NCBI GenBank assembly: GCA_964016885.1
Contig: CAXHJY010000254.1
Span: forward strand, 62,001 to 126,000
Origin: Eledone cirrhosa
Lineage: Eukaryota
Length of the DNA stretch: 64,000 nucleotides
Direction of reading: 5' to 3'
Part shown: positions 5,927-63,671 of the stretch, in pieces
Numbering within the stretch: the first letter of the stretch is position 1
Layout: each line of letters begins with the position of its first letter
Program-made: the position numbers and the translations under genes
Notes under the pieces: model-generated
Databases searched by the model: none
Seen by the model: the letters and a program-made list of their open reading frames with translations, nothing else
Told to the model about the DNA's origin: nothing

Positions 5927-5980
<54 letters not shown>

Positions 5981-6026
5981 CGTAAAATAAGAAAATTATA
6001 AAATTAACTTACTTACTAAAATATCA

Positions 6027-6104
6027 CTTCCAACTAATTAGTTTCTGGAATGGAATAAATATATTTTCCGAAGAAAACAGAGAATCATTCCGTCGTCAGG
6101 GAAG
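6027..6104 (-). ncRNA. Type I hammerhead ribozyme with extended stem II (family D1)
   Basis: CUUCC-CUGACGA-C GGAAUG..UGUUUUC UUCG GAAAAUA..CAUUCC A-GAAA-CUAAUUAG-UU-GGAAG. Confidence 0.85.
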
Positions 6105-6544
6105 ACTATTCTCATCTAAGTTTCCAGGCAAAGTGTGGACTCTGGAAACTTATTAAAAAATAATTCAGTGGATAGAAAATAGCAAAGCGTGGACTGAATT
6201 CCTAGCCATTGAGAAAATCACTGCCTCTGCGTCGGTGGCAAATTCAAAAAGAATCAATCACGTGACATCGAGGTCAATCAGTGAAAGTGGTTTGCTAATA
6301 AGACAGCGGCCTGCCTGCTACCATAGCAGCAGTCATGGCCAATATTGCTCGACAAATAATTTGGAGATAATTATAAAGAATTAATATCTAGTAACATATA
6401 TATACATACAGATGCATATCAATGCTAGCAAATATATAGGTTTTGTCTTAGTAACTTTGTGGTTCAATGCATGGGTTGCAGAACAATAATATGAGAGACG
6501 TAAAATAAAAAAATTATAAAATTAACTTACTTACTAAAATATCA

Positions 6545-6623
6545 CTTCCAACTAATTAGTTTCTGGAATGGAATAAATATATTTTCCGAAGAAAACACAG
6601 AGAATCATTCCGTCGTCAGGAAG
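6545..6623 (-). ncRNA. Family D1 hammerhead, second copy
   Basis: Same motif 518 bp away; 1-nt deletion in the 5' strand of stem I. Confidence 0.75.
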
Positions 6624-6781
6624 ACTTTTCTCATCTAAGTATCCAGGCAAAGCGTGGACTCTGGAAACTTATTAAAAAATAATTCAGTGGATAGAAAATA
6701 GCAAAGCGTGGACTGAATTCCTAGCCATTGAGAAAATCACTGCCTCTGCGTCGGTGGCAAATTCAATATATATATATATAT

Positions 6782-11174: not shown

Positions 11175-12113
11175 CTCGGTCGTTAATTACCTCGACGTTA
11201 CCCTCATTTATTGAATGGGTTGTATTACCCGTATAGAAAGCCGAATGATACGTTTAATTACATAAGTAAGCATTCAAACCATCCTGCCAGCATAACCAAG
11301 AACCTGGTAAGAAACGTTTCGTTGAGGCTTTCCCGTCTTTCCACCAACGAGCGTATTTTCAACGACCATTCCACTTATTACAATGAAGCTCTTGCTCGAA
11401 GTGGATTTGTTGATAAGGTAGCATATACAGAGTACGAAAATAGACCTAGAAGAAATAGATCCCGTCGCATTTGTTGTATAACCCCTATTATAATATGGAG
11501 GTGGCCACATCACCCATTAGCTAAGAACTTTCTTTCCCTTATTACGAAGCATTTTCCCCCTACACATAAACATAGTAAGATTTTAATAGAAATACCATTT
11601 AAAATTTCTTACTCTACGACTCTAACCTTGCACATAACATCACAGCTTCAACTTTAGCTAAACTACCTAGCGGTAGGAACACGTGCAACCCTGTAGTTAG
11701 TACTAACTGTAATTGTAGGAATCGGCTGATTGCCCCTATCCGGGAAATGTCTCTCTAGTAACATTGTCTGCAAATGTAAGGTTGTAACACCCACGTCCCG
11801 TAGGGCCTACATAGGGTTAACCGCCAATAGTTTCAAGCAGCGTCTTTACATGCATACCCATATGTCTTTTCGTTACCCTCTAAGAAGGAATATGACGTCA
11901 CTTTCAGCTTATATCTGGAGTCTAAAAGACAACCACACCCAATATAAGTTACACTGGGAGATCCTAGCTAGGGCTAGATCGTATAACGGAAATAAAAAAC
12001 CATGTGACCTCTGCGCCGCTGAGGCCCTGGAAATACTCTACGCCACAGACCACATCTTAAAACAAAAAATCTGAGGCAATTTCGGCTTGTAAACATAAAT
12101 TGCACAAAACTTC
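11175..12113 (+). pseudogene. Degenerate PLE fragment: RT thumb plus GIY-YIG endonuclease
   Basis: [46 protein letters not shown]; homologous to the ORF ending at 25427. Confidence 0.85.
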
Positions 12114-13862: not shown

Positions 13863-16800
13863 TCAGGATTTGGGCACCATGGCCCATTCGAGAAGAGAAT
13901 TACTGTTTGCGGAGACATATCCGGGTGTGGGTGGTTTGTCCGGGATTACTTGGAGGAATTTGTCCAAAGACTTCTTGAATTTTGTGTGGTCAGTTTCTGT
14001 TTTGACGTGTCCTGGTGTGATGTTGAAGAGAGCAGGGCCGATTGAGGTGAAATAATTGTGCCGTATTGTTGTTATGAGTTGCGATTTAGATTTTTGTATG
14101 GGACGGATAGCACGGGGCCCAAGCCTTGGGTGTATCTTGAAGGCGATGCCAACATCATTTGGGCAGTGATGATGGAACATTTTCCACATCATGCAGATAA
14201 TATAACGCTCACGGCGACGTTGGAGTGAGTATAGTTTCAGGTTTTCTAGTCGACCCCAGTAGTCAAGGTCTGACATGCCATCTATCTTTTTCGTGATTGC
14301 CCTTTGAGGAGCTTCAAGTTTCATGATACTTTGTTTCGTGTGGGGAGACCACAGTGGACAACAGTATTCAAGGTGTGGTCGGGCAAAAGTAGAGAAGAGA
14401 AGGATAATGGTGTGGGAATCTCTCGACTGGAAGGTTCTGAGGATCCAGGAACACATTCTGCGGGCCATGTCAACTTTGCTGCTTATATGCGTGGCCCAGC
14501 TTATGTTGCTGTCCACGGTTACTCCCAAGTCTCTGATGTTGTTAGATGCCACGAGAGTTTCCCCGGAGGGAAGGGAGTACGGGAGTTTCAGAGCATCCTC
14601 TTTTCCAAAGTGGATCAGTTCGAATTTGTCTTCGTTCGGTAACATGTTGTTCTTTTCCGTCCATTGGGTAACAGCCAGTAGGTCTGACTGAAGGCTTATC
14701 CGGTCATCCACGCCATTGATGACCTTTTGGAGCTTGGAATCATCAGCAAAAATTTTAATGTTGCTGTGTTTGATGATGTCAGTGATGTCAGTAATATAGA
14801 TGATGAAGAGAAGTGGGCCCAACACAGTGCCTTGTGGGACCCCACTACTGACTTTGGCTGGGCTGGATTTGACTCCTTCAACTACAGCATGTTGGGTTCT
14901 GTTTGACAGGAAGCTCTTGATCCACTGCAGCAGCTTTCCAGTGACACCAATATTGGACAGCTTTCTCAGTAGAATGTTATGATCAACCCTGTCAAAGGCC
15001 TTGCTGAAATCAAGGTAGATAACATCAGTGTTGGAACCCTCTCCCAAGGCTCTCAAAATGTCATCAAAGTGATGCAGTAGCTGCGTCAGGCAATCCCTTC
15101 CATTACGGAATCCATGCTGGTTGAAGTTCAGCATATTGTTACTCTCAAGGAAGTGGGTCATTCGCGATCTCACCACTCTCTCAAATACCTTAATGATATG
15201 AGAGGTGAGTGAGATTGGACGGTAATTCACGGCAAGGGATTTGTTTCCCTTTTTGAAAACTGGGACAACAGACTGGGATAGAAGGTTTTCTGGCACATAT
15301 CCAGCATCCAGTGAGTTCCGCCACAGATTGGCAAGAGGAGATGCAAGTTGGTGTTGACACGCCTTCAAGACACAAGCAGGGAACCTATTGGGACCTACTG
15401 CTGAATTATGCTTGATTTCCTTTATTGCCGCTAAGACATCAGGGGCGCCAAACGTTATGTCCGATAAGGTGTAATGGGGAGTAACATCGCCGATACAGCC
15501 CAGATCGGCCATATCAGGATTGCTGAAAACAGAGCAGTATTGTTTCTGCAGTATCTCACCCATGGTTTTAGCATTGTCTTGAAGAGTGCCATTTTCATCA
15601 ATTAGAGGGCCAACAGTAGAGCCAGTGATTTTGTGTTTTTTTGCAAATGAAAAGAACACTTTGGGATTGAGTTTGATCTTCTCAATGGCCCAGGCCTCTT
15701 CAGCTCTTCTCTGATTGTTGATGAGGGACATTATGTTGTTTTGGAGGTTATGTTTTTTAATCTCTAGTGATGAAATGGCAGTCAAGTTGATGTGTTGCTG
15801 CTGACAGTATTTCAACTTGTTGATTTTTTTGTTCGTTCTCTTAATTTTTCTGATGAGCGTTTTTCTATTTCTAGGGATTCTGCTCTTAGATTTGTTTATA
15901 GTTCTTAATGGGGTGTGTTTAGCACATATGTTTGTAACAGTGTCCACAAATGTCTGCCAGGACTTTTTGATGTTAGTGGGTGTATGAGTGTGCGTGAAGG
16001 ACCAGTCGACATGTGCAAGATCATGACTGATCGCTTCCCAGTTTGCATTGTGGAAATCCATAGCGTCAAACGGATGGACAGGAGAGATGACATTGGGTTT
16101 GTATATTGGGCGGTGGAATCTCAGATCACAGAGAACCATGTCATGATCAGAGAGTAGAGTTTTCTCCACTGCAATATTGTGGATATTGTCAGTGTGATTG
16201 CTGAAAATTAAGTCTAGGACGTTTTTGTGGCACCTCGTTGGTTCGAGCACCAGTTGGGATAGGAAGAAATCATCCATGAAGTCAAGAAGCGATTCCACTG
16301 CTTCCCTGTCAGAGGTTGAGGCAGAAGAACCTGGTGGCAGGCTGTTTGTGGACCAGTCAACTCCGGGGAGGTTGAAGTCCCCCATCATTAAGATGTTGTC
16401 AGGGTGACACTCTTGGATGAAACACTTTATGCTGTTGAGACATTCCTTGAAGCATGGTACAGGCGTTTGGGGTGGCCTATAGAGCCCAACTACTATTAGG
16501 TTGTTGGTTTGACTGAATACAGTGACTGCTTCACAGTATCCATTAGTGAATATGTTCATAGCCTCTGTTGAGAAAGAATTATGGACATAAATGGCAGTCC
16601 CGCCCTTTCTTCTGCCAGCGCGATCAGCACGGATGGCTTTGAAATTTTTCACTTTCACCTCGGCTTCCAAGTGGAGGTTACTGAGATGGGTTACTGAGTG
16701 AGGACGAAGAAAGGGATGTGGTTTGGATGGACATCAATCCAGTCCTCCAGGAATTTGATCTTCCATTTTTGAGTATTGGTGGAAGGGCTGATGCCTTGGG

Positions 16801-21750: not shown

Positions 21751-21813
21751 CACATATATATATATATATATATATATAATAAATAACAAAGAACGCCTAT
21801 AGCATATGCATAT

Positions 21814-21871
21814 CTTTACTTGCTAACATTGTTTCATCCGCACTATAAGTGGGACTCATCAGAGCATAAAG
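21814..21871 (-). ncRNA. Type I hammerhead ribozyme (family E), inverted pLTR copy
   Basis: Reverse complement of 22679-22736. Confidence 0.85.
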
Positions 21872-22678
21872 GTTAATTACATACCATACAAGCAATAACA
21901 AATCCAAGACATTGAAGAATGAAAGATAATAATAGACGATAAAGGATATTAAGGAAGTAAAAGTAAAAATAAAGATAAGAATAAAAATAAAAGTAAAAAT
22001 AAAAATAAAAATAAGAATAAGATAATAAAATAAACAATGAAAAATAAGCAATGAAAAATAAGGGGTGCTATCAGTCACAGTTGGGCGGGGTGCTGTCAAC
22101 ATATAGTTACATACAAGCATACACATGGATAAGAGAACAGACAAGAGTAGATAAGATAGATGGGATTAGGTAAGAGTAGGTAAAAAATAGGTGAAAAACA
22201 TTATATTATATTATGTTCTATTTATATAATTTTTAATTTTAATTTTATATTATTTTATCTCATTCCTTACCCTGTATCACTATTATCTGTATATTTTATA
22301 TTTTATATGTAAGTTTGTTATGTATTTCTTTATATTTTCTTATATATATTATAAGTCTGTTTTTCACCTATTTTTTACCTACTCTTACCTAATCCCATCT
22401 ATCTTATCTACTCTTGTCTGTTCTCTTATCCATGTGTATGCTTGTATGTAACTATATGTTGACAGCACCCCGCCCAACTGTGACTGATAGCACCCCTTAT
22501 TTTTCATTGTTTATTTTATTATCTTATTCTTATTTTTATTTTTATTTTTATTTTTACTTTTATTTTTATTCTTATCTTTATTTTTACTTTTACTTCCTTA
22601 ATATCCTTTATCGTCTATTATTATCTTTCATTCTTCAATGTCTTGGATTTGTTATTGCTTGTATGGTATGTAATTAAC

Positions 22679-22736
22679 CTTTATGCTCTGATGAGTCCCA
22701 CTTATAGTGCGGATGAAACAATGTTAGCAAGTAAAG
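22679..22736 (+). ncRNA. Type I hammerhead ribozyme (family E)
   Basis: CUUUA UGCU-CUGAUGA-GUCC CACU UAU AGUG C GGAU-GAAA-CAAUG-UU-AGCA AG UAAAG. Confidence 0.87.
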
Positions 22737-22938
22737 ATATGCATATGCTATAGGCGTTCTTTGTTATTTATTATATTACGGCTCTGTCCTCAGACATTGA
22801 GCTAACCTTATACTGCCTGCTGGATAAGTGGTGTGTTATACACCCCTGATCCTTTCCCTAGTATACTATACGGCTCCCACTGGTTGAGCTTAAACTTTGA
22901 TATACGCGGATTTGTGTCCTTGTATATTATCAGGCAGT

Positions 22939-25427
22939 ATGCTAACAAAGACATACTTACCCATTTCCTTGAAGAATATTCCCACCCCCCTAAAATCTCA
23001 TATGAGAAATCATTGATAACTAGCATAAACTCATTCGTAAAACGTGTTCGGTGGCGTGCGTTCCACTTTGATAAGAAGTATGATAGCCCTGAAGAGAGGC
23101 GTAGTTTTAATAATTATGGATTTAAGACCTATAGGAGCCCCCCGCATAATAGCCTGTTGGATAACTTCGAAAGTGAGCTATTATCCCTTGTTAGGAATAT
23201 TAGATATAAAAAATCTAGATGTACCAATAAATTTCAGAGTAAACTAAGTTCAATCGTTAGGGACTTTAGGGATAATAAATCCATTCTGGTCCCCTCTGAC
23301 AAAACTAAAAACTTATATAGTATGGATTATAAAACCTATCGAGGCTTCATTTATAATGAACTACATAGGAACTACAAAAAAACAACGCAGAGTAATTTAG
23401 ATAATATTAATCTGGAGGGGTATAACATAGTGGTAAAACTAGGTCTGGATAAACACACTCAGCCTTATTACCCCAAGCAGCCTAGATTCACCCTCAAGGA
23501 CCACAAGGAAGATTTTATTAGTAGACCCTCAGTTAGGCTTATCTGCCCCTCCAAGTCTGACCTGGGGATTATTAGTAAGGGAATCTTGGATAGCGTTATT
23601 CCCCTGGTTAGAGAAAAAACTTTCCTTGAGCTTTGGGGTAACACTAGTGAGGTCATTACGTGGTTCTCTACGGATTGTGGTCGTGACTCACTAAAATTCA
23701 TCCAATTTGATATTGATGCTTATTATACATCTATATCTCCTATTATCCTCAATAAGGCCCTCATCCTAGCCATGCAGAGGGGGGCAATTACTAGGCCACA
23801 GATAGATATTGTTCTCGCTGCACGTAAAACCATTATCATGTTTGAGGATAATCTATGGACGAGAAAAAACACACCTGATAATTTTGACATTACTATGGGG
23901 TCGAGTGACTCTGCTCAAGTCACCGACTTAGTTGGGCTATACCTCCTCAATGAACTGCATAGTAACTTCCCTTTCCTTAGGGGCGGGTTGTACCGGGATG
24001 ACGCCCTACTCTCCATAGATACTAGTAAGTATAATATAGTGCGCATTAGGAAAAAGCTGCATAGCTTTTTTAAAACATTTAACCTATCCATTACTATGGA
24101 TGTAAATGATAGAACTGTGAACTTCCTGGATGTTACACTGGACTTGGATAACCATACGTACACACCGTACCATAAGCCTAATGAATTGCTGACTTACGTG
24201 AATACCAACTCCAACCACCCTAGGTCTGTCATCAGCGGTATACTGAAGGGCGTATCTAACAGAATAAGTTCACTCTCACATAGTGAGGAGGCGTTTGACT
24301 CGCAAGCTGATTACTATAACGACGCCTTAGCTAGATCCGGCTTTAGGGACAAATTGTATTACACCCAGGGAAATAATGGTCCTAATAGTAGCTCTACCAG
24401 TGTTGTTATAACACATAATATGTCCATTGGTAATCGAGGTGTCGCGAATGGGAGGGTTCTAAATGCCGGTGGAATGAAGCAGCAGGGCACCATTAGTCTA
24501 AGTAATAACAATAGAGGTGTCGTGAACGGGAGGTTTCTAGATGCCGGTGGAATGAACCAGCAGGGCACCATTAGTCTAAGTAATAGCAATGGTAGGCCTC
24601 GCAGCTCCCCGCATAGACTAGGTGAGCATAGGAACCGTAGAAATAATAATGCTAATAATACTGATGGAAATAGAAAGAATAAAAAGAATAGAAGAAGATT
24701 GAATACATACTTCAACCCCCCTTTTAATTCTGAAGTGGCTATAAATATTCCTAGGGCCTTCTTCTCTGTGTTAGAAAGGAACTTCCCTCCTGGTAATAGG
24801 TACCACTCTATCCTCAATAAGAATGTTGTTAAACTTTCGTATTCTACAACCCAAAATCTGGCCTCTCATCTGGCCATTACTAATAATAAGAAAATAAAGG
24901 AAGGCCTGGACAACCTAAGCCTAGGGGAAAACACGGTAGTGGACAGAGCGGGCAGAAACACTAGTGGTGATCATTCTGAGAATAGCATCACCAGAGGTTG
25001 TAACTGTAGAAGGGCTTCAGGCTGCCCCCTGAATGGTTTCTGCCTTGTTAGAAACATAGTTTATGCGTGTGATGTAGTAACTACGGCGTCCACTAAGACC
25101 TATATAGGATCAACCTCCACCCCCTTTAAGACCAGGTTTAACTCTCATCAATGCACTTTTAGACATAATAAACTGAGGAACTCCACCTCCTTGGCAGCGT
25201 ACGTCCATAATTTAAAAAATGCACGAACACGTTACACACTTACTTGGCGGCAGGTTGCTAAATCCCATCCATATACTCCTCATAATAGAGTATGTAACCT
25301 ATGCCTTGCCGAATCCCACTCTATTATATTTGCTAAATGCCCTCTACTAAATAGAAAGTCTGAAATATTTTCCTCTTGCCCCCACCGAATATTAAGCTCT
25401 TTCTTCTACTTTAAACCTGTTAGCTAG
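22939..25427 (+). CDS. PLE reverse transcriptase with C-terminal GIY-YIG endonuclease; probable start ATG 22939 with a 1-nt frameshift in the C run at 22985-22990
   Basis: SLKNIP.P / KRVRWRA, SDKTKNLY, FDIDAYY, ITMGSSDSAQ, LYRDD, NFLDVTL, CNC..CPL..C, IVY..TYIGST..FKTR..H, CNLC. Confidence 0.92.
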
Positions 25428-27002
25428 CACTTCCTTATTCCTCCAGTTGGGCTGTCTTGTGTAACTGTCTCTGACTGTGTGTAACTGTCTCCTATTGTTG
25501 GTCGTCTATGTATACGAGTCGGTGAATGTATACGTATGCCTGTGGGAGGATATTGATCTGGATATTGGGGTGTGCAGGTGAGTGGGTGTGTATGTTAATA
25601 AGCACCCCTGTTTGGCACAGTGGATGTAACCCATCCACGCTCGCCTACCCACCATTGGTGCATCGGTGGGTCTATCCTGACGTATATCTTGTTGATCTGT
25701 ACCTCTGTATGCGCATGAGTTGTGATGTAATGTATTTATGTAAAGCGTGTACTGCGATTTAGGCTGCACTAGTAGAAATTTAGCCTGTAACTGTGGGCGG
25801 ACCCGTGCCATCCCGCCGTAAGCAGTGGATACGTAGCGCATGTACGTGTTGCCCTCACATTCTGTGGTTCAAGATCTACAGGCTGACCTCTGGGAGCTCC
25901 TGCCCGGGGTTGTAGTCTTTCTAGCACGATCGGCCTTCCATATATGGACGGTCGTTGTTATGATCCCGAAAGTAACGTTTTGGCCCCGATAGCCCTCCGT
26001 AGTTACTAACGGTCTGTGTACACTTGAATCGGGCAATGGCACGTGCGGACATGAATATCTCCGTAGGATTTCAACTTTATTTTACTACATCTCATCGTAT
26101 GTATTTATTTTGAATGTATTACCTGTGGTGGTGGGACTGGTCTAATGTGGTATTTCGGTGTTTAATATCAGCTTTGACCCGGGTGTCCTACGCTGTGTGT
26201 GTGTGCGTGTGTGTCCGTGTATACATTTATATGTGTATGGGTGTAGGTGGTTGTATGTGTCTGTATATAAAAAAATATATATATATATATATGTATACCG
26301 TCTCTGCATATGCATGTGGTGTGTATATGTGCATATACGTGCTGAAGATATTGATGTGTACAATCTTGTGATGTCCCAATGCGGTGACTTAATGGCTCTT
26401 GAAGCTATTTTTTATATATCTTCTGTCTTTTTATATATCTTTTGTATGCGCTACAACTGTGTCTGCTTGCTTTGGCTAACCCGCCTGCACCTCGCTTTGC
26501 TAATGCACGTGAATTCTTCTACCTCCTTCGATGCACCTCTCTCTGACCATTGGACTCCTGCCCGGGTGTGAACCGGTTTGTGATTACCCCACCGCTCAAC
26601 TGTGTGAATGCACACCCGTGACTGTCGAGTGAACTTTTGAGACTGCCCAACCTGGGACGCCTCCATTGCCTTGCAATGGTCAAGTGATACTGGTGACTGT
26701 GACACTTAGTGCCTTCGTGGGCCCCTCATGTTTTCAAGAAATATATTTTTAAAAAATGGTCAAGTGATACACATAACTGTGACACTTAGTGCCTTCGTGG
26801 GCCCCTGATATATTCAAGAGATATATTCTAAAAAAATATATATCTTATCTCAATTTACTTTATTTCATTTTATTTTATTTTATTTTATTTCATTTCATGT
26901 TATCTAATTTTATTTATTTACTTATTTAACTCCATTTATTTATTTATTTATTTAAATTTAAATTTAAATTTAAATTTTATTTATTTATTTAATATTTAAT
27001 TT

Positions 27003-27042
<40 letters not shown>

Positions 27043-27617
27043 TTACATTTAATTACATTTAATTATATCTTATATTATATTATTTTAATTTAGTCTATGT
27101 TATTTGATTTTAGTTTACCTTATTTTATCTTATTTTACGATTATATTATATTATGTTCTATTTATATAATTTTTAATTTTAATTTTATATTATTTTATCT
27201 CATTCCTTACCCTGTATCACTATTATCTGTATATTTTATATTTTATATGTAAGTTTGTTATGTATTTCTTTATATTTTCTTATATATATTATAAGTCTGT
27301 ATTCACCTATTTTTTACCTACTCTTACCTAATCCCATCTATCTTATCTACTCTTGTCTGTTCTCTTATCCATGTGTATGCTTGTATGTAACTATATGTTG
27401 ACAGCACCCCGCCCAACTGTGACTGATAGCACCCCTTATTTTTCATTGTTTATTTTATTATCTTATTCTTATTTTTATTTTTATTTTTATTTTTACTTTT
27501 ATTTTTATTCTTATCTTTATTTTTACTTTTACTTCCTTAATATCCTTTATCGTCTATTATTATCTTTCATTCTTCAATGTCTTGGATTTGTTATTGCTTG
27601 TATGGTATGTAATTAAC

Positions 27618-27675
27618 CTTTATGCTCTGATGAGTCCCACTTATAGTGCGGATGAAACAATGTTAGCAAGTAAAG
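27618..27675 (+). ncRNA. Family E hammerhead in the 3' pLTR
   Basis: Identical to 22679-22736. Confidence 0.87.
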
Positions 27676-27826
27676 ATATGCATATGCTATAGGCGTTCTT
27701 TGTTATTTATTATATTACGGCTCTGTCCTCAGACATTGAGCTAACCTTATACTGCCTGCTGGATAAGTGAAGTGTTATACACCCCTGATCCTTTCCCTAG
27801 TATACTATATATATATATATACATAC

Positions 27827-27889
<63 letters not shown>

Positions 27890-28140
27890 CATATATGTAT
27901 GTATGTATATATGTATGTATGTATATATATATATATATATACATACATACATACATACATATATATATATATATATTAGAAATTGGAATAAATGCTCTGA
28001 AATAGCGATATATATGTGAATATAGACATAGAATATTCGAAAATATTCTGTATGTTTATAATAAACATTTTGAAGACCTAATCGCTATAGAATAGAATAC
28101 GTCACGTATTACAATTAGATTCTCGATAAAAGCAAGGGAA

Positions 28141-28183
28141 GTAATCTACGCGTTTCATTCTTGTTAGAATTCATCAGGACTAC
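28141..28183 (-). ncRNA. Minimal type I hammerhead ribozyme (family F)
   Basis: GUAGUC-CUGAUGA-AUUCU AACA AGAAU-GAAA-CGCG-UA-GAUUAC; enclosed by a 15-bp TTCTCGATAAAAGCA/TGCTTTTATCGAGAA stem. Confidence 0.9.
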
Positions 28184-28450
28184 ATATCCAGTGCTTTTAT
28201 CGAGAATGACACAGCTAGAGACTTATAGAATACTTAGCTGTGTACAGGAACTGGTTTGAAAGAGCGGTTGCCGGTCCGGCAGAAATTAGAAATTGGAATA
28301 AATGCTCTGAAATAGCGATATATATGTGAATATAGACATAGAATATTCGAAAATATTCTGTATGTTTATAATAAACATTTTGAAGACCTAATCGCTATAG
28401 AATAGAATACGTCACGTATTACAATTAGATTCTCGATAAAAGCAAGGGAA

Positions 28451-28493
28451 GTAATCTACGCGTTTCATTCTTGTTAGAATTCATCAGGACTAC
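28451..28493 (-). ncRNA. Family F hammerhead, second copy
   Basis: Identical motif 310 bp away. Confidence 0.9.
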
Positions 28494-28935
28494 ATATCCA
28501 GTGCTTTTATCGAGAATGACACAGCTAGAGACTTATACATACATATATACATACATACGTATATATATACATACGTATATATATACATACATATATATAT
28601 ACATATATATATATATACATATATATATACATATATATATACATACATATATACATACATATATATATATACATATATATATATACATACATATATACAT
28701 ACATATATATATATACATATATATATATACATACATATATATATACATATATATATATACATACATATATATATACATATATATATATACATATATATAT
28801 ATACATACATATATATATATATACATACATATATATATATACATATATATATATACATACATATATGTATATATATATATATATATACATACATATATAT
28901 ATACATATATATACATACATATATATATATATAAA

Positions 28936-46481: not shown

Positions 46482-46703
46482 GAATATATATATATATATA
46501 TATTTAGAATTTAATATTCTATCATACTATTTCATTATAATACCATATTATATATATTTTAAAGGATTGTAAATAAAACGAGTAAATCAGACAAAGTTGG
46601 AATTCCTCTTATTAATATAATCTTCTATACACAATCATACACACCCGTGTATATTTACCTATCTATATCTATATATATATATTCCTATTGTGTATATGCC
46701 AAC

Positions 46704-48053
46704 ATGTCTGGAAAGCAACAAATGAAACCAACAGAATCAGAAAGAATTCTAAAGGAGATATCATCGAAATTATCAACACTTATCACGATGATGGACACAC
46801 AATCCTCTATTTTAAAGGAAATAGAAAAACAATCTACAGACGGAAAACTTATAACTGAACATATAAACTCTGAAATTAAGAATTTAGCTGAAATTATACC
46901 AACAGTTATCAAAGATACAAGAGAAAGCCTACCACAACCCCCTTGGATGTCAGAAATAAACGAAAGAAATTTGGAAAACAAAACACATCAAATAAGAAAA
47001 GAAATGTGGAAGACATGGAAAAAATTCCTTAACATAAGAAAACAAAATTTCTGGAAAGCATACAGATGCGAAAAATATGTCGAAACACATTCGAAATGGC
47101 TCTCTCTAACGGCACCCATACTCCCTCGTAAATACCTAATTACAGAAATTGCAGGAGAACCAGAAGAAGAAACAAAACTCCGATGGGAACTTACATTGAC
47201 AAAATTCAGGACCGACATCTCCATTTCTGAATGTAAACAATCCCGCTACAAAGCCAAATATGAAGCTATTGATGACCAAATTGAAGTTGAAATTTCAAAG
47301 CTAACGACTGGTATTATAGCTGAAAAACTACGAGAACTATGGATCGGAGATATCTCAAAAGAAGAAAACAAATCAAGAAAGGTATGGCAGCAGAAACAAT
47401 TATTTCTCGATGAATATGCTGCAAATTACGGTAAAGACTCTGGAACCCCGAGAAAAAGCATTAAAAGTGGACAATCTCATCAACACAACATACGCCAGAA
47501 CACGTGCCAACACAAACGCTCACCTTACCTTGAATCAAAGAAGAACTACGGTAATAACTCTTCGCTTTTTCTACAAAAACACCCTATCGCACACAACATG
47601 AACAAAAAGCACAAACACGATAGGTATTCCTTTGACCAGACCATGAGAAGTAGTAAAACCAGGAGATCATTCTCAAGATCTCAACAGAGACTACCAACAA
47701 GGAATGTGGAAACAAAACGTAGAATAACCAGATCACTCTCAAGATCTCAACAGAGATTGCCCACAAGAAACTGGACGAAAAAACGATCTAAACCTGAAAG
47801 CAAACCTAGGTCATTTTCCCAGATTGTTAAAAATAATGCTAACAGGAAGAAAAATAATATACAGAATACCAAAAATAGGACAAAATACATAACGAAACCA
47901 AATATAATATCACGACCAAAAGTTCATCAAGCGAACACCAACAGGAATATAAATCCTGAACAGAGAAAAATTCATTTTTTAACGTCAGGACAACAAAAAC
48001 CGGAAAAAGAAAAACTCCAGGAGGAAACATACCCAAAACAGCTGTACACGTAG
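46704..48053 (+). CDS. PLE ORF1 (449 aa): helical/coiled-coil-like N-terminal half, basic low-complexity C-terminal half with a 22-aa-period repeat
   Basis: Uninterrupted ORF from ATG 46704; heptad-like ILKEISSKLSTLITMMDTQSSILKEI; RS(F/L)SRSQQRLPTRN twice. Confidence 0.75.
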   Translation: MSGKQQMKPTESERILKEISSKLSTLITMMDTQSSILKEIEKQSTDGKLITEHINSEIKNLAEIIPTVIKDTRESLPQPPWMSEINERNLENKTHQIRKEMWKTWKKFLNIRKQNFWKAYRCEKYVETHSKWLSLTAPILPRKYLITEIAGEPEEETKLRWELTLTKFRTDISISECKQSRYKAKYEAIDDQIEVEISKLTTGIIAEKLRELWIGDISKEENKSRKVWQQKQLFLDEYAANYGKDSGTPRKSIKSGQSHQHNIRQNTCQHKRSPYLESKKNYGNNSSLFLQKHPIAHNMNKKHKHDRYSFDQTMRSSKTRRSFSRSQQRLPTRNVETKRRITRSLSRSQQRLPTRNWTKKRSKPESKPRSFSQIVKNNANRKKNNIQNTKNRTKYITKPNIISRPKVHQANTNRNINPEQRKIHFLTSGQQKPEKEKLQEETYPKQLYT

Positions 48054-50287
48054 ATCCTAAAATAATTAATTTATCTAAAAGAGATCTTGACAATGATGAA
48101 ATGCAAATTCTGTCAAAAGGACTGAAATTCACACCGACTCCAACAGTCAACCACCAAGAACTGAAGGAGGATACCCAAGAATTCTGTCGAAAATTACGTC
48201 TTGTAGAATTCTTCGCTGATAAAAATAATGAGAGTGATGAATCACTAGTAAAGAATAAATCAAATTTCACTCCGCCAAAAGGAAGAAATATTTATCTCGA
48301 CCAATACATTGACATCCTGTCTAAATTTCCTCTTAGACATAATACTAATGTTAGGCCAAACATTAACAAATCAGAAATGTCTGCACTTAAACGTATACAA
48401 AATGATAAAACAATAATAATTAAACAAGCAGATAAAGGGGGTGCAGTTGTTATAATGGATACTGAATACTACAAGGATTTGGTTGAGGAACAACTGAAAG
48501 ACACAACATTCTATCATGAAATACCGTCAAATATAGACCACAACATCATGAAGAAGATCAACAACCTGGCTTCAAAATACCACAACTCATTTACTGATAA
48601 GGAAAGAGACTACATCACCAATTTTGAGCCGAAACCCAGCAACTTGTATGGCCTACCGAAAGTTCACAAGTCAAAAGAAATACAACTGGCAGTAAGAGAA
48701 CAAAACAGTGAGTACATTAAATTATTACACCCAAAAGACTTAAAACTTAGACCTATTATAGCTGGTCCAACATGCCCCACTCACCGTCTAAGCAATTTTG
48801 TTGACATTATTTTGAAACCACTATGTATTCACATACCCAGTTTCATCCGGGATGATATCGACTTCCTGTCCCATCTTCCCAAAACCACGGAAACGAATTC
48901 ACTTCTACTCAGTTTTGATGTGGTAAGCCTTTACACCAACATTACACATGATTTAGGAATAAAGGCGGTTAAATACTGGGTGGAAAAACATAGAGAAGTG
49001 ATTCCCATTAGATTCACAGCGCCATTTATATTAGACGCAGTTAAACTTATTCTGGAAAACAACACTTTCTTCTTCAATGGAAAGAATTACATCCAAATTA
49101 GAGGCACAGCGATGGGAACGAAGTTTGCTCCCGTTTACACGAACTCTGTAATGGGATACTTAGAACAACAACTCTACCAAGAAATAGAGGAAAAATATAG
49201 TACTGACTTTAGAAAGTACATTGAAAAATCTTGGAAGAGATACCTTGACGACTGTTTCATCATCTGGACAGAATCTCTAGATACTCTGGATGAGTTCAAT
49301 ATCCTCCTGAATAACCTACACCCATCTCTCCAATTCACAAAAGAGATGAGTAGGACCAAATTACCATTCCTAGATATAATGATAATCAAAAACGACACCA
49401 CCATTACCACGGATATATATTATAAACACACAGACACCCATCAATATCTGAATTTTAAGTCGTGCCATCCACCTCATACAAAACGCAACATCCCATACTG
49501 CCTAGTCAGAAGAATTTGTACCATTGTAGAAGATACGAATACCAGGTACAAACGCCTAACAGAACTAAGAGAATTTTTGCTCAAACAAAAATACCCATCT
49601 CTACTTATAGAAAATGGCATACAGCGGGCTATAAAAATACCTATACAACAACTTAGAACAACCCAAGGAAGAAGAAACCAAGAACTGGTCATACCATTTA
49701 TAATGACACACAACCCATGTCACCAGAATATATTCAACACTGCCAAAGCAAACCTACCGATCATTGCTCAAAGTAATGAATTAAAAGGCTTAATCACAGA
49801 TCGATCTTTGACTCTTAGTAAAAGACAGCCAAAAAATTTGAAGCAATTGCTAACAAAAGCAAAGTTTGACCTTAACAACAAAGACCAATCATTCACTGTA
49901 TCTAAATGAAATGATAATCGATGCGGCACATGTCAATCCATACACGCCGGTCAATATATGAAAACAAAAACTGGAAAAATATTCCCAAATGCAAATATGA
50001 ACTGCAAAAGCAGAAATCTAATTTACTGCATTAAATGCCCGAATTGTGAAGAACTATGTGTCGGTCAAACTGGAAATGCACTATCGGAACGTGCACGGGT
50101 ACACCGTCAACAAATCAGAGACCCAAATGTCCGTCAGATACCCCTAAGCGGCCACCTGGCAACATGTGGTCAGGGAATATTTATAATATTCCCATTCTAC
50201 AAATTACACAGCCCAAGTGAAATCAAGAGAAAAATCAAAGAAAAGAATTTTATTGATAAATTCAAACCCAAGCTAAATGAACAATAA
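47975..50287 (+). CDS. PLE RT plus GIY-YIG endonuclease; -1 frame relative to ORF1; one in-frame TGA at 49907
   Basis: IINLS..L..E..IL.KGLKFTPTP, ADKGG, YGLPKVHK, RPII, FDVVSLYT, GTAMG, RYLDD, PFLD, LIYCIKC..C...CVGQTG..L.ER...H. Confidence 0.92.
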
Positions 50288-50665
50288 TAACGCCTAGGGG
50301 TATTACTTCTACTACCACTATGACCACGACCACTAACAACAACAGCAACAACAACAATAATAATAATAATGAAAGTGATGTTGATGGTGATGATTAATAG
50401 AAAATGCTATTTTCATCATTTCTAAAAATAGCAAAACAATTGATGCGTTGGATATGACTATTGGTCGTTAGCATGCTCAACCAGCCGTGACGCTTAAACC
50501 AATCAGCTGTAGTAATTCAGTGAAACTACACAGATTGGTCGAAATACAGTTTACAGGGCTTTGCATTCTGGAGCCACTTTTCTCTGTATAAAATGTATAA
50601 AAGGTAGTAAATTTACCCATCTCATTACAGTTGAAAATTGCAAACTCGACTGTCACCACATATCA

Positions 50666-50704
50666 TGAACCTGAAGATTGCGAAAGCATGAAAGTACTTG
50701 TTCA
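50666..50704 (+). ncRNA. Minimal type I hammerhead (family A) in the 3' pLTR
   Basis: UGAAC-CUGAAGA-UUGCGAAAGCAU-GAAA-GUAC-UU-GUUCA. Confidence 0.82.
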
Positions 50705-50870
50705 ATTAACACTTAGAATTTAATATTCTATCATACTATTTCATTATAATACCATATTATATATATTTTAAAGGATTGTAAATAAAACGAGTAAATCAGA
50801 CAAAGTTGGAATTCCTCTTATTAATATAATCTTCTATACACAATCATACACACCCGTGTATATTTACCTA

Positions 50871-53253: not shown

Positions 53254-53295
53254 AATATGGTTTTATAAATATAGTTTCCATTTGTTTAATATCGC

Positions 53296-53328
<33 letters not shown>

Positions 53329-53625
53329 CATATATATATATATACATATATACATATATATATACATATATATATACATATATATATACATATATATATA
53401 TACATATATATATATACATATATATATATACATATATATACATATATATATATACATATATATACATATATATATATAAATACATATATATATACACATA
53501 TATATATATACATATATATATACATATATATATACATATATATATATATACATATATATATACATATATATATATACATATATATATACATATATATATA
53601 TACACATATATATATATATATATAC

Positions 53626-53690
<65 letters not shown>

Positions 53691-53757
53691 TATACATATA
53701 TATATACATATATATATACATATATATATATACATATATATATACATATATATATAC

Positions 53758-53788
<31 letters not shown>

Positions 53789-53789
53789 C

Positions 53790-53824
<35 letters not shown>

Positions 53825-53867
53825 CATATATATATACATATATATATACATATATATATATATATAC

Positions 53868-53900
<33 letters not shown>

Positions 53901-53901
53901 C

Positions 53902-54017
<116 letters not shown>

Positions 54018-54134
54018 TAATAAGAGGAATTCCAACTTTGTCTGATTTACTCGTTTTATCTACAATCCTTTAAAATATATATAATGGTATTATAATGAAA
54101 TAGTATGATAGAATATTAAATTCTAAGTGTTAAT

Positions 54135-54173
54135 TGAACAAGTACTTTCATGCTTTCGCAATCTTCAGGTTCA
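54135..54173 (-). ncRNA. Family A hammerhead
   Basis: Identical to 13-51. Confidence 0.8.
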
Positions 54174-54244
54174 TGATATGTGGTGACAGTCGAGTTTGCA
54201 ATTTTCAACTGAACAATTTTCAACTCGACTGTCACCACATATCA

Positions 54245-54283
54245 TGAACCTGAAGATTGCGAAAGCATGAAAGTACTTGTTCA
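54245..54283 (+). ncRNA. Family A hammerhead
   Basis: Identical to 50666-50704. Confidence 0.8.
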
Positions 54284-54449
54284 ATTAACACTTAGAATTT
54301 AATATTCTATCATACTATTTCATTATAATACCATTATATATATTTTAAAGGATTGTAAATAAAACGAGTAAATCAGACAAAGTTGGAATTCCTCTTATTA
54401 ATATAATCTTCTATACACAATCATACACACCCGTGTATATTTACCTATC

Positions 54450-57996: not shown

Positions 57997-60440
57997 TTAT
58001 TTACTTAGGTCAGTGTTGTTTGTTTGGGTGTTGTTGTTGTTCCACTCATTCTTTCTGTTTAGCTTTGGTCTTCTAATTTCTATTTCACTGGCCTCTCTGA
58101 TTTGCCTATCTGCTAGATCATTCCTATGTTTAGATATTATTCTAATTTCTATGTTGTCTATGTTACCGTCATGTTGTTATCTAGCATGTTCGTATAGTAC
58201 TGACCCGTTTTTTCGTCCTTTTAGTTCCCCCCAGTGTTGGTCTATCCTTTCACCTATGCTACGAGCTGTCTCACCTATGTATGTTGTTGTCATGTTTCTG
58301 CAAGTACCCTCTGTACATCTTATGCTATAGACTACGTTTCTAGTTTTACAGTTTATCCGGGGGTTCACCTTACATATGATACATTTCCTATTGGTACAGT
58401 GGGTTTTCTTAAAAGGGTAGGTTTTGCTGATCAGGGATTTTATGGTGGTTCCTGGCTTTTCTACCACCTTTATTTTTAAGTGGGTCTTTCTCAGGGCCTT
58501 TCTACACTGGTTAGCTAATTTCCCTCCAGGGATGGCGTCCACAAACATGACACTCTGATATCTCTGGTTGTCGTACCATGATGTGGCCTTCCCTATCTTA
58601 TGTCTAGCCCTATCTAATCTATTCCATGATTTGCTCCTGTATAGTGGGCAAATTGCTTTCATGTCCAGTTCTATGAGGGTCTTATACTTTTCCATGGCTC
58701 CTTCGTATACTCTGACTCTGTCTCTTTGGTTGTAGCCAGAGAACTGCATGCGGTTGATGAAGTGTTGGATGTGTCTTTCCATTTCTGTTGGGTTGCACAT
58801 GCTGGACACATTCTTCATCACTCGTACCAAATCTGCGATCAGAATATTAAACTTAGCACTACTGGACATTGCTGAGTTTTTGAGTATCAGGTATTTGGAG
58901 GCCATGGGTTTAGCATAGTGTGAGTGGAGAATTTGGGCTCTCTCGTCTATAGTGTTAATCCAGAGTTCTGTGTCTAATACAGGTAGTCTATTGTTAGGGT
59001 GTTTGGAAGGGAAGTCGATAGTTATAGTTATACTCTGGTGTATGGAATTAGCTATCTGCTGGATGCTTTCCATCGTGCTACGTTCTAAATCAAACTTATT
59101 AGTGCTCTCTAGTGGGGGTGTTCTTATAACTATATTGATATCGTCTACATAGCGAGAGTACATGATGAGGTCTATGGAGCTTTCATTAAGGAGATCTTTA
59201 AGTCTCCTTTCCCACCATACCATGAAAAGGTTGGCAACATCACCAGCTATACTGATGCCGATGGTTGCTCCCTCATTTTGGGTGTAGATTTTCTCATTCA
59301 ACTTAAATATGTGGCCCTTTAGGGTAGTTTTGATACTAGCCCCTATTGCATGTGCGACCATTTTTCTTACCTGATCATTGTTTTGGGGGGTCCGTATAGC
59401 TTTGGTCCACCCAATCCACCTTACTATGGGAGTCTTTTTAGCCATTGAGGTTATGGTGGGGGTCTACCTCTTATGGGTCTACTAGGGCAGAAACATCTAA
59501 GGTCATGGCTGTCTAGGTAGTCAGTGTCGTAGGTAAGTCTAAGTAGAAGGCCCAGTTCGTCTGTGTCGACGTCGCAGAACTCCACCTCACTCTCAATGAT
59601 CATCTCCACACATCTTTTCACAGCAAAATCAATGTTAATGGATGGGTACAGTGACACCACATCCATGCTGCCTATTATGCAGTTGGATAGGCTCCTGTTT
59701 TTGTTGCACTCACTGATTCTGCTGAGGAGGTCCTCTGTACTTTCACATACATCTGGGGACATCTTGATTATGGGCGTATAACCATTGAGAGGAAGTAGGA
59801 GATCCTGTAGTTGCTAGCTATATTAGCTCCGCATACGGGTCTTGTTGGTGGTCCTGTTGTCGGGTCGTCGACTATCTTGTGGTCTTTGCGGAGCCCATAC
59901 AAGGGTGGTATGCCATTGTTAGACGCCTGGAAGTTGTTGGCAGTGCGTCTACTTGGCTTTAGGATGTCAGTCCACATCATCATGTGAGCGTTGAGGATTT
60001 TTTCTCTCCCATCGTGTGTTTGTTGTGCAACTTCGCTCGTGTTGGTGATGTGGGGTTGCATTGCCTCGATGTAGTTCGGCATGCTATCTATTGACATCCT
60101 ACCAGACTTATCTGTGGGTAGACACACTACCTCACCATCCCTTGTGCGCTGCTTGAGGCTAAGCAAGCCTTCTACAGGTTTTCTCCCAAGTTGTTGGGCC
60201 TCTGGTCTGCTCTGTCTCATAGTATACCTGTCTACTACTTGTCTAATCTTATTTCTAGCTATGGTGAACTGTGCCTCCGTCTCGTCATCTATTTGCTGTG
60301 GTATGCAAACTCTTTTATTAAAGGGTAACCTCGTAGGATAAATATTACCAATCTTATATGTTTTGTCAGCTGGGTTGAAAAATAGTTTCTCTAAGGGGTT
60401 GTCGTTATATCTATCGTCATAGTTGTGTGTGTTGCTATTA
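57997..60440 (-). pseudogene. PLE RT-EN ORF broken by two 1-nt deletions and one TAA
   Basis: PTDKSG, LYGLRKDHK, RPVCGA, MDVVSLYPSI, GATIG, RYVDD, LPVLD, VVYSIRC..YIGET..ER..H; continues past TAA 58177 to RQIREA..LNRKNEW. Confidence 0.88.
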
Positions 60441-60547
60441 TTGTTACTGGCAATATTACGCAAATATGACCCTCCCCAAGTATAACAATATCTGTTTCGA
60501 CACACGATTTCATATAAAAAACCTCGCTAAACTAATTCATCGCCGCT

Positions 60548-63215: not shown

Positions 63216-63671
63216 ATATATTTATTGATAATAACAACAATTCAAAATTACAGGTCTGTTTGGGAACAGAGTTCAAATTGACCAATGAAAACACAAAAAG
63301 TTTATACAGTTAGGTGTGTGTATATATGTAAGTAACTTCGTTCACAGATATGCATAAAAATATATATGTTCACATGCATACGCATGCCGAAAAGATGTAT
63401 GTAAATACAAAAATTCAAGGCTAATGTCTCTGTATGTTTATAATCTACAGATAAAATACGTATACGCATATAAATATAAAAATAAAAAAATAAATATATA
63501 CACACATTCATATACTCACACATATACGTACATTCACACACACACGCGCGTATACGCATAAACATACACACAACCACGAACATAGAAAAAAGAAATATAT
63601 TAAGAACATAGAAAAAAGAAATATATTAAGAAAATATACATATATATATATATACATATACATATATACAC

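Follow-up and report, generated by a model that had tools for sequence, protein, structure and literature searches.

Non-LTR retrozymes, as set out in the available text of two reports (PMC7229834; 10.64898/2026.07.22.740005), are non-coding tandem units of low GC content, each with a type I hammerhead and a palindromic stem III; they occur as dispersed partial tandems, PLEs have been proposed as their mobilisers and circles as their templates. The first animal members to be described had units of 150-450 bp, and circles have been demonstrated for animal retrozymes other than the present one (PMC7229834, available text). A unit range of 51-972 bp is given in the accessible part of 10.64898/2026.07.22.740005. 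Of 57 Xenopus families considered in this literature, 24 had matches in Repbase, almost all to PLEs. Among the PLEs, the EN+ elements of the Hydra clade, including Hydra-1_Obim, combine (TA)n targets, 5' truncation, partial tandems, inverted 5' arms and a hammerhead with an optional tail at one end, 30-40 nt long according to the available text (PMC8557442). In PAc, a Poseidon PLE of the anole, the tail is defined by two internal RT starts downstream of the hammerhead cut, the targets are AT-rich, both strands are nicked and extended, and the enzyme is predicted to be a dimer; the starts lie in an AC-rich stem-loop, with no target homology and no strand preference in vitro (PMC11167929, available text). 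The origin of PLE tails and inverted arms, and the copying of retrozymes from circles, are stated as open questions in the accessible parts of the retrozyme and PLE papers.

The window analysed here, a 64,000-nt stretch of the Eledone cirrhosa assembly (contig CAXHJY010000254.1, positions 62,001 to 126,000), holds two inserts of a protein-free tandem hammerhead repeat that shares the retrozyme features listed above. We conclude that the repeat is a non-LTR retrozyme that is probably copied into TA repeats by the enzyme of a Hydra-type PLE, starting at both end sites on what is likely one circle. Previous publications cover the retrozyme class, its link to PLEs, the idea of a circular template and the tail at a single end. 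In the openly accessible literature searched, we found no report of a near-strict pairing of two end types with a shared haplotype, nor of a repeated bulged hairpin at both starts that is common to a retrozyme and a coding PLE. The family offers many natural insertions that obey a nearly strict rule (a short end paired with a long one, and a single haplotype), a candidate cis-element of ~20 nt common to a retrozyme and an intact, recently amplified coding PLE of the same genome, and a small defined substrate for in vitro work, consisting of a 520-nt RNA, two hairpins and a TA target.

Two retrozyme inserts and their hammerhead

Insertion 1 (5971..6766, minus strand) aligns as a single arm of 1.53 units of a 518-nt monomer (796 nt), and insertion 2 (37443..38120, minus strand) as a single arm of 1.28 units of a ~533-nt subfamily. 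The first-pass annotation, made from the letters of the window, had given about 1.5 and about 1.3 copies of homologous units, in agreement with these lengths and with the 77-78% identity between the two monomers. The internal repeat of insertion 1 (5971-6247 versus 6489-6766) is 97.5% identical over 279 nt and that of insertion 2 is 96.7% identical over 151 nt. Both inserts sit in TA tracts, as had been stated, the tract being short at the 37443 end, and the claim that they are non-coding agrees with unit 1, the unit scanned, where the longest ATG-started frame is 25 aa. The same annotation called the monomers large; at 518-533 nt they do exceed the 150-450 bp reported in the available text of PMC7229834, but they fall within the 51-972 bp given in that of 10.64898/2026.07.22.740005. 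The units are joined head to tail only, with no LTR, PBS or PPT, and among the dispersed mobile copies some carry two complete hammerheads, all of which are marks of non-LTR retrozymes.

The 3' end of insertion 1 lies at site A (5971), where 5971..5982 (minus strand) enters (TA)n at +61 past the cut site and the terminal ATAT of the unit overlaps the target repeat; the 5' end is truncated at monomer position 303. Insertion 2 ends at site B (37443; about +179) on its 3' side and is truncated at monomer position ~36 on its 5' side, so that the window contains one A copy and one B copy. Insertion 2 adjoins the 3' end of a LINE-like RT frame (34719-37362, plus strand), and its TA tract also hosts an inverted non-coding arm pair at 38260-40200.

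A type I hammerhead is present in each unit of the tandem, with the minus strand as the working strand. In insertion 1 it spans 6027..6104, with an intact core, CUGACGA at 6099, and a GUU cut between 6032 and 6031. Stem I measures 5 bp; stem II has 6 bp, holds a long inner hairpin and opposes a C to an A at its base; stem III is palindromic. The element is a predicted ribozyme. The second hammerhead of this insertion (6545..6624, minus strand; core at 6619, cut between 6550 and 6549) lacks one C in stem I and is likely weakened. Insertion 2 contains a type I hammerhead at 37618..37698 (minus strand), with the core CUGAUGA at 37693, a cut between 37622 and 37621 and the same C/A opposition. The earlier statement that both inserts hold intact internal hammerheads therefore stands for the cores at 6099 and 37693, but the second copy of insertion 1 is one C short and insertion 2 has no second one.

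Across units, stem I measures 4-5 bp, the sequences CUGANGA and GAAA are shared, stem III is palindromic and the predicted cut follows GUU. The core is 97-99% conserved across copies, and the opposed C and A are 99% conserved. A sample of 25 units, drawn from both subfamilies, has three versions of one stem II pair (G-C, U-A and A-U) and two of another (U-A and G-C), counted per sequence and not per event. This covariation, together with the conservation of the opposed C and A, indicates that the C/A opposition is a maintained variant rather than decay. The fold z of the ribozyme strand is -4.2, compared with -1.0 for the opposite strand. The best 150 of 427 Rfam matches included no hammerhead family and were driven by TA repeats, under gathering scores; the hammerhead call thus rests on a descriptor search and on covariation. 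Like the minimal hammerheads of PLEs in the available text of PMC4209133, the unit has an extra nucleotide after A9 and a palindromic stem III; unlike those described there, it carries an additional A, conserved in 99% of copies, between C11.1 and G12, and a stem II domain of ~55 nt with an inner hairpin.

Other parts of the unit are also conserved. A purine strand upstream of stem I (6106..6113, minus strand) is complementary to a run of conserved pyrimidines in the loop of stem II, and the two may form a 5-bp tertiary pairing; 98% of cells are paired in this helix, with zero two-sided changes. Two conserved predicted stem-loops at 6118-6151 and 6162-6200 (minus strand) each carry a similar GUCC-containing motif. 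The block 6252..6283 (minus strand) is 97% conserved against a unit mean of 94%, and contains what we take to be an E-box-like CACGTG and CAAT-like words; it could possibly serve as an internal promoter.

Fixed 3' ends and an adjacent bulged hairpin

Genome-wide searches of the 3.0-Gb assembly (1,796 contigs) returned 2,152 candidates for the 518-nt unit and 3,058 for the ~533-nt unit, with the subfamilies forming a continuum of about 75-99% identity. Exact matches numbered 3,006 for the 25-mer just before site A, 3,454 for site A entering TA and 5,275 for site A read through, with 0 for the reversed control in each case. Ends were mapped from the first 100 listed 25-mer matches, which are position-ordered on one chromosome and yielded 58 insertions, all mapped. 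Arm limits were curated by hand, TA runs were trimmed, one insertion was scored per locus and positions were numbered from the cut site.

The 3' ends proved to be fixed in 85 of 89 arms, 46 at site A (+57 to +65, mostly +61) and 39 at site B (+170 to +184, mostly +179), with 4 elsewhere, whereas the 5' ends were scattered over the unit. Short B arms are under-sampled here, because the search pattern sits just before A. The ~533-nt subfamily ends at the same two sites. The first-pass annotation had predicted permuted end points. The window inserts indeed differ in where they start and end, as it observed, but their 3' ends are two fixed sites used genome-wide, and it is the 5' ends alone that vary. 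Arbitrary entry of RT on a circle, giving randomly permuted and terminally redundant inserts, would account for the differing ends of the window inserts and for the 33 of 58 insertions that exceed one unit; the 85 fixed 3' ends and the 3,454 exact site A junctions refute it, leaving it a close to negligible probability. That more than one unit is copied, also claimed earlier, is confirmed by those same 33 insertions.

Sites A and B are 118 nt apart, and each lies on a TATA/ATAT overlap with the target. Target overlap alone fails to pick these sites, since the unit has 20 TATA/ATAT positions and a longer run at 150-155 is used by no end; simple TA microhomology is thereby ruled out as the cause of the A and B ends. 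Most copies measure 0.2-3 units, often with an inverted second arm. Truncated 5' ends, partial tandems, an inverted 5' arm and an optional tail at one end together form the footprint of PLE mobilisation. The earlier reading of a non-coding, retrotransposed hammerhead retrozyme holds. Within (TA)n, a target-site duplication would be masked by the repeat itself. Copies L078 and L044 lie outside TA tracts, apparently within the coding region of another PLE family, and could be used to read the target-site geometry. At L014, the 5' end of an arm abuts the tail of another hammerhead family with no TA spacer.

A hairpin of one predicted form lies 4 nt 3' of both A and B: a stem of 3-4 bp continues, past a two-nucleotide UY bulge in its 3' strand, into a short upper stem. 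On the minus strand of insertion 1, hairpin B is at 6347..6367, 4 nt 3' of a read-through site B (6372), and hairpin A at 6462..6484, 4 nt 3' of a read-through site A (6489). Insertion 2 has hairpin A at 37529..37552 (minus strand), with a second copy at 38063-38086, and hairpin B at 37950..37970 (minus strand), 4 nt 3' of an internal site B (37975). A scan of the whole window gave 9 matches, of which 5 lie by A or B of the inserts, 3 within a coding Hydra-type PLE and the ninth at 63289, away from both. With these two known families masked, 25 of 99 distinct hairpin matches found in flanking DNA, in other families, fall 40-330 nt past a hammerhead core, compared with a background of 2.6% and 7 in a reverse-direction control; the upper stems of these matches vary, and their pairing is partly built into the search pattern. 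Within the family, covariation analysis found no two-sided change in hairpin A or B, and hairpin B alone is marginal, with a predicted -0.2 kcal/mol. A further point against a role of the hairpin is a Neptune-type PLE of the window, which has a short and a long end without it.

Since the ends are fixed beside the predicted hairpin, they suggest that a PLE enzyme copies from both points, and we regard two primed starts as highly likely. This retrozyme resembles PAc in its two-start tail pattern and AT-rich target; it differs from PAc, as described in the available text of PMC11167929, in that its ends overlap the target by TATA/ATAT and lie 5' of a repeated bulged hairpin, and in that the two strands use different sites.

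Pairing of arms and the nature of the template

An inverted second arm, placed head to head, was found in 31 of the 58 insertions: 28 pair A with B, 1 is B+B, none is A+A and 2 are unclassed. The A+B class thus makes up 28 of 29 classed pairs (binomial p 5e-8 versus independent choice). Other, less neutral samples, scored by eye with duplicates removed, gave 13 A+B with 3 unclassed, 13 with 1 and 22 with 7, part of the loci in the last being hand-picked, and no A+A or B+B occurred in them. Among the first 100 listed A/TA junctions the nearest spacing is 10.2 kb, never within 10 kb, where independent arm choice would predict about 38% A-A partners. An automatic pass over 146 insertions separated 87 two-arm from 59 single-arm copies. 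Compared with the 150-450 bp retrozymes in the available part of PMC7229834, the present unit is longer and its copies are often two-armed; its ends, a feature left unmapped in the available text of both retrozyme reports, are two fixed, hairpin-marked sites.

A different origin of the second arm would be a fold-back copy made after a single RT start at B, with the A end set later by an endonuclease that reads the hairpin as DNA. The tail has been ascribed to EN-mediated resolution in the available text of PMC8557442, self-priming has been proposed (PMC3846280), and arm junctions cluster at the palindromic hairpin at positions 461-480 (13 versus 3.8 expected); such copying would equally yield A+B pairing and one haplotype. 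However, in half of the A+B insertions (14 of 28) each arm includes sequence that the other lacks, arm lengths are uncorrelated (rho 0.12, n=28) and A exceeds B in length in 14 of 28, so this explanation fits less well, although later deletion at the centre of a palindrome could mimic such a pattern. Single-arm ends in the 58-insertion sample are 17 A and 9 B, with sampling favouring A. Two RT starts were moreover observed directly in vitro for the anole PLE (PMC11167929, available text). We consider fold-back copying improbable and retain two primed starts.

The arms of one insertion appear to come from one template type. At 75 segregating sites, they agree in 960 of 1000 comparisons (96%), and successive turns agree in 1932 of 2010, where allele frequencies predict 55% in both cases, and many haplotypes co-exist across insertions. 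Within an insertion, arms diverge by 2.4% and turns by 2.6%, similar to the divergence from the closest other locus, so the agreement could also reflect a single source that was dominant when the insertion arose. Copying crossed the cut site in 104 of 116 arrivals, and 6 and 2 insertions exceed two and three units, respectively. A cut monomer would yield only 61 or 179 nt, so the template must have been a circle, an uncut multimer or like molecules between which the enzyme jumped. Read-through of the cut site and the shared haplotype fit a circle, and would equally fit a homogeneous uncleaved multimer; we moderately favour the circular template.

In favour of a linear multimer template, the genome holds an array of 15.7 units joined to a short A arm (L240/L241, G000:C1 about 94,665,900-94,674,400); arms of 3.5 and 4.9 units are also present. 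Copying would then begin at the same two starts on an uncut linear multimer, with no circle and with the hammerhead incidental. A slight excess of 5' ends within 20 nt past the cut site (11 versus 4.8 expected, p 0.01 uncorrected, 27 bins), too weak to count as evidence of cleavage, can be read in its favour, as can the in vitro work on the anole PLE, in which unprocessed, uncut RNA was the main substrate and the hammerhead was dispensable for insertion (PMC11167929, available text). Yet the units of the array differ from one another at 1-39 positions per pair, mostly 20-39, while the turns of dispersed insertions share a haplotype. Nor is there an inherited order of turns: differences between adjacent turns recur in no fixed order, with 22 same-direction recurrences, of which 8-9 are an alignment artefact (L068/L079), leaving 13-14 against 14 in the opposite direction. 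In addition, 5' truncation would shorten linear copies in each round, and the stem II covariation shows that the hammerhead fold is maintained. Taken together, these points make the linear template unlikely, and the circle remains the preferred template. The array itself has one subfamily haplotype common to its units, with near-identical unit pairs 1/7, 5/8 and 6/9 that point to later local block duplication; it is a retrozyme insertion becoming a satellite.

Coding PLEs and a proposed route of integration

The window also contains a coding Hydra-type PLE (21779..27800, plus strand) that serves as a comparator. Its 873-codon ORF (22806-25427) carries RWR, DKT, CxCx5C and YIG motifs and matches the Hydra clade in the first three, judged by the available text of PMC8557442; an RWK-like motif, the DKT motif, the CxCx5C linker, the C-terminal GIY-YIG, the (TA)n target and the hammerhead are all features of that clade. 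A GFKT word is also present, a motif that the same available text calls not conserved in the Hydra clade. The unit is ~4.9 kb, with a 3' UTR of about 2.2 kb and many intact copies at 96-99% genome-wide. In the window copy, the inverted arm with the short end lies at 21779 and the long end at ~27800; its hairpins are at 22781-22802, 22873-22889 and 27720-27741. Ends fall at +51 or +145, 94 nt apart and each 2-4 nt before a hairpin, and two-arm copies in which both ends were visible pair a short with a long end in 7 of 7 cases (6 of 20 fetched copies and the window copy).

The retrozyme therefore shares with this element both the end rule and the hairpin, and shares with the Hydra clade in the available text of PMC8557442 the (TA)n target, 5' truncation, partial tandems, inverted 5' arms, hammerhead and optional tail at one end. 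The tail measures 118 nt in the retrozyme and 94 nt in the window Hydra element, against 30-40 nt in that source. Unlike the clade as described there, the retrozyme has no ORF, its homology is confined to the hairpin, and its one-end tail occurs in 28 of 29 classed pairs, where the source says 'often'. The earlier suggestion of a PLE as the likely mobiliser is supported by the tail footprint and by the hairpin common to the Hydra-type PLE; mobilisation by a PLE can be stated with high confidence. A Hydra-type enzyme is quite likely, given the hairpin, the end rule and the TA target. Comparison of the monomer with the window Hydra element gave no significant match, so this more specific link rests on hairpin and footprint.

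Two further PLE regions were noted in the window. A Neptune-type PLE (DKG) lies at 46563-50870 and 53290-54440, with a 496-codon upstream frame, hammerheads at 50671 and 54250 (plus strand) and 54168 (minus strand), and short and long ends about 45 nt apart. Further PLE-like coding fragments lie at 58177-60526 (minus strand) and 11187-11657 (plus strand).

The inserts might instead be truncated terminal repeats (pLTRs) of a coding PLE beyond those seen. Their footprint is identical to that of coding PLEs, PLE ORF fragments occur in many insertion flanks, and the flanks covered 1.5-3 kb compared with a Hydra 3' UTR of about 2.2 kb. On the other hand, successive units join end to end for as many as 15.7 turns, and comparison of the 300-nt 5' flanks of 59 single-arm insertions with five PLE proteins of the window gave no match in any of them. 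In all 30 loci fetched for site B read-through the monomer sequence continues, and hairpin B followed by two non-A bases, a narrow pattern, has 0 matches genome-wide. No RT and GIY-YIG ORF was found between repeats of the unit in the copies examined, and the unit has no significant match to the window PLE proteins. The termini of 30 of 150 listed GIY-YIG loci, mostly of the Neptune type, gave no terminal match to the monomer, while the flank of one held an independent copy of the unit; a search of the genome with the Hydra protein returned only the Hydra element's own family. In the searched loci the unit thus has no sequence link to a pLTR, unlike the 24 of 57 Xenopus families noted above. 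The insert is not the pLTR of a coding PLE in any copy examined, and the alternative as a whole is very unlikely. The first-pass annotation had named, as telling against its own reading of permuted inserts, a unit with fixed ends that is always the pLTR of a coding PLE; fixed ends were found and a constant pLTR was not, the unit never being joined to a PLE ORF in these single-arm flanks and read-through loci. Some single-arm copies share 5' flanks; this common sequence seems to belong to further repeats within the TA tracts, and in the pairs checked the arms differ in their 5' ends.

For the retrozyme copied by a Hydra-type enzyme, we propose the following route. Copies with two good hammerheads, which occur in one arm with intact cores in only 9 of 58 insertions, would be transcribed and cut to a monomer of ~520 nt, the ends of which would be ligated to form a circle. 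The RT/endonuclease of a Hydra-type element, probably acting as a dimer, would bind the two hairpins and nick both (TA)n strands, a step suggested by the anatomy shared with the coding element. At the DNA level the products end at +61 and +179, where RT would start; the copied stretch passes the cut site and is of variable length, often over one turn. The two cDNAs would then be joined head to head, often at self-complementary spots such as 461-480, or one cDNA would survive, as in both window inserts.

A more far-reaching form of this route is tentative, and we hold it to be somewhat doubtful: PLE integration may be an obligate, asymmetric twin priming on one circular RNA, by a dimeric enzyme docked on two UY-bulged hairpins. 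Each subunit would start 4 nt upstream of its own hairpin, on opposite target strands, and both would roll past the hammerhead junction. Twin priming is known from LINE-1, where two target-primed cDNAs on one RNA give rise to a 5' inversion; there the first primer starts from the poly(A) end, and the internal site used by the second varies. In the retrozyme, unlike in LINE-1, both starts are internal and fixed, and the arms point outward. If this form holds, the duplicated hairpin would be a cis-code that makes the PLE tail and the inverted arms, unrelated retrozyme circles could hijack the enzyme, and two short hairpins might enable any RNA circle to integrate at (TA)n.

Several other features of the window were recorded. 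A different hammerhead repeat at 27975-28537 (minus strand) consists of 1.8 copies of a 310-nt unit in TA, with repeats 100% identical, and the window scan found no bulged hairpin in it. The inverted pair at 38260-40200 has non-coding arms of ~0.9 kb, with hammerheads at 38357 (minus strand) and 40027 (plus strand), one short and one long end, and the same bulged hairpin as the retrozyme after the short end. A hammerhead at 2116 (minus strand) has a canonical G-C stem II base and a GUC cut. The frames at 29557-33728 (minus strand) presumably belong to a Gypsy-like LTR retrotransposon, and those at 13863-16733 (minus strand) and 34719-37362 (plus strand) are presumably LINE-like RT frames.
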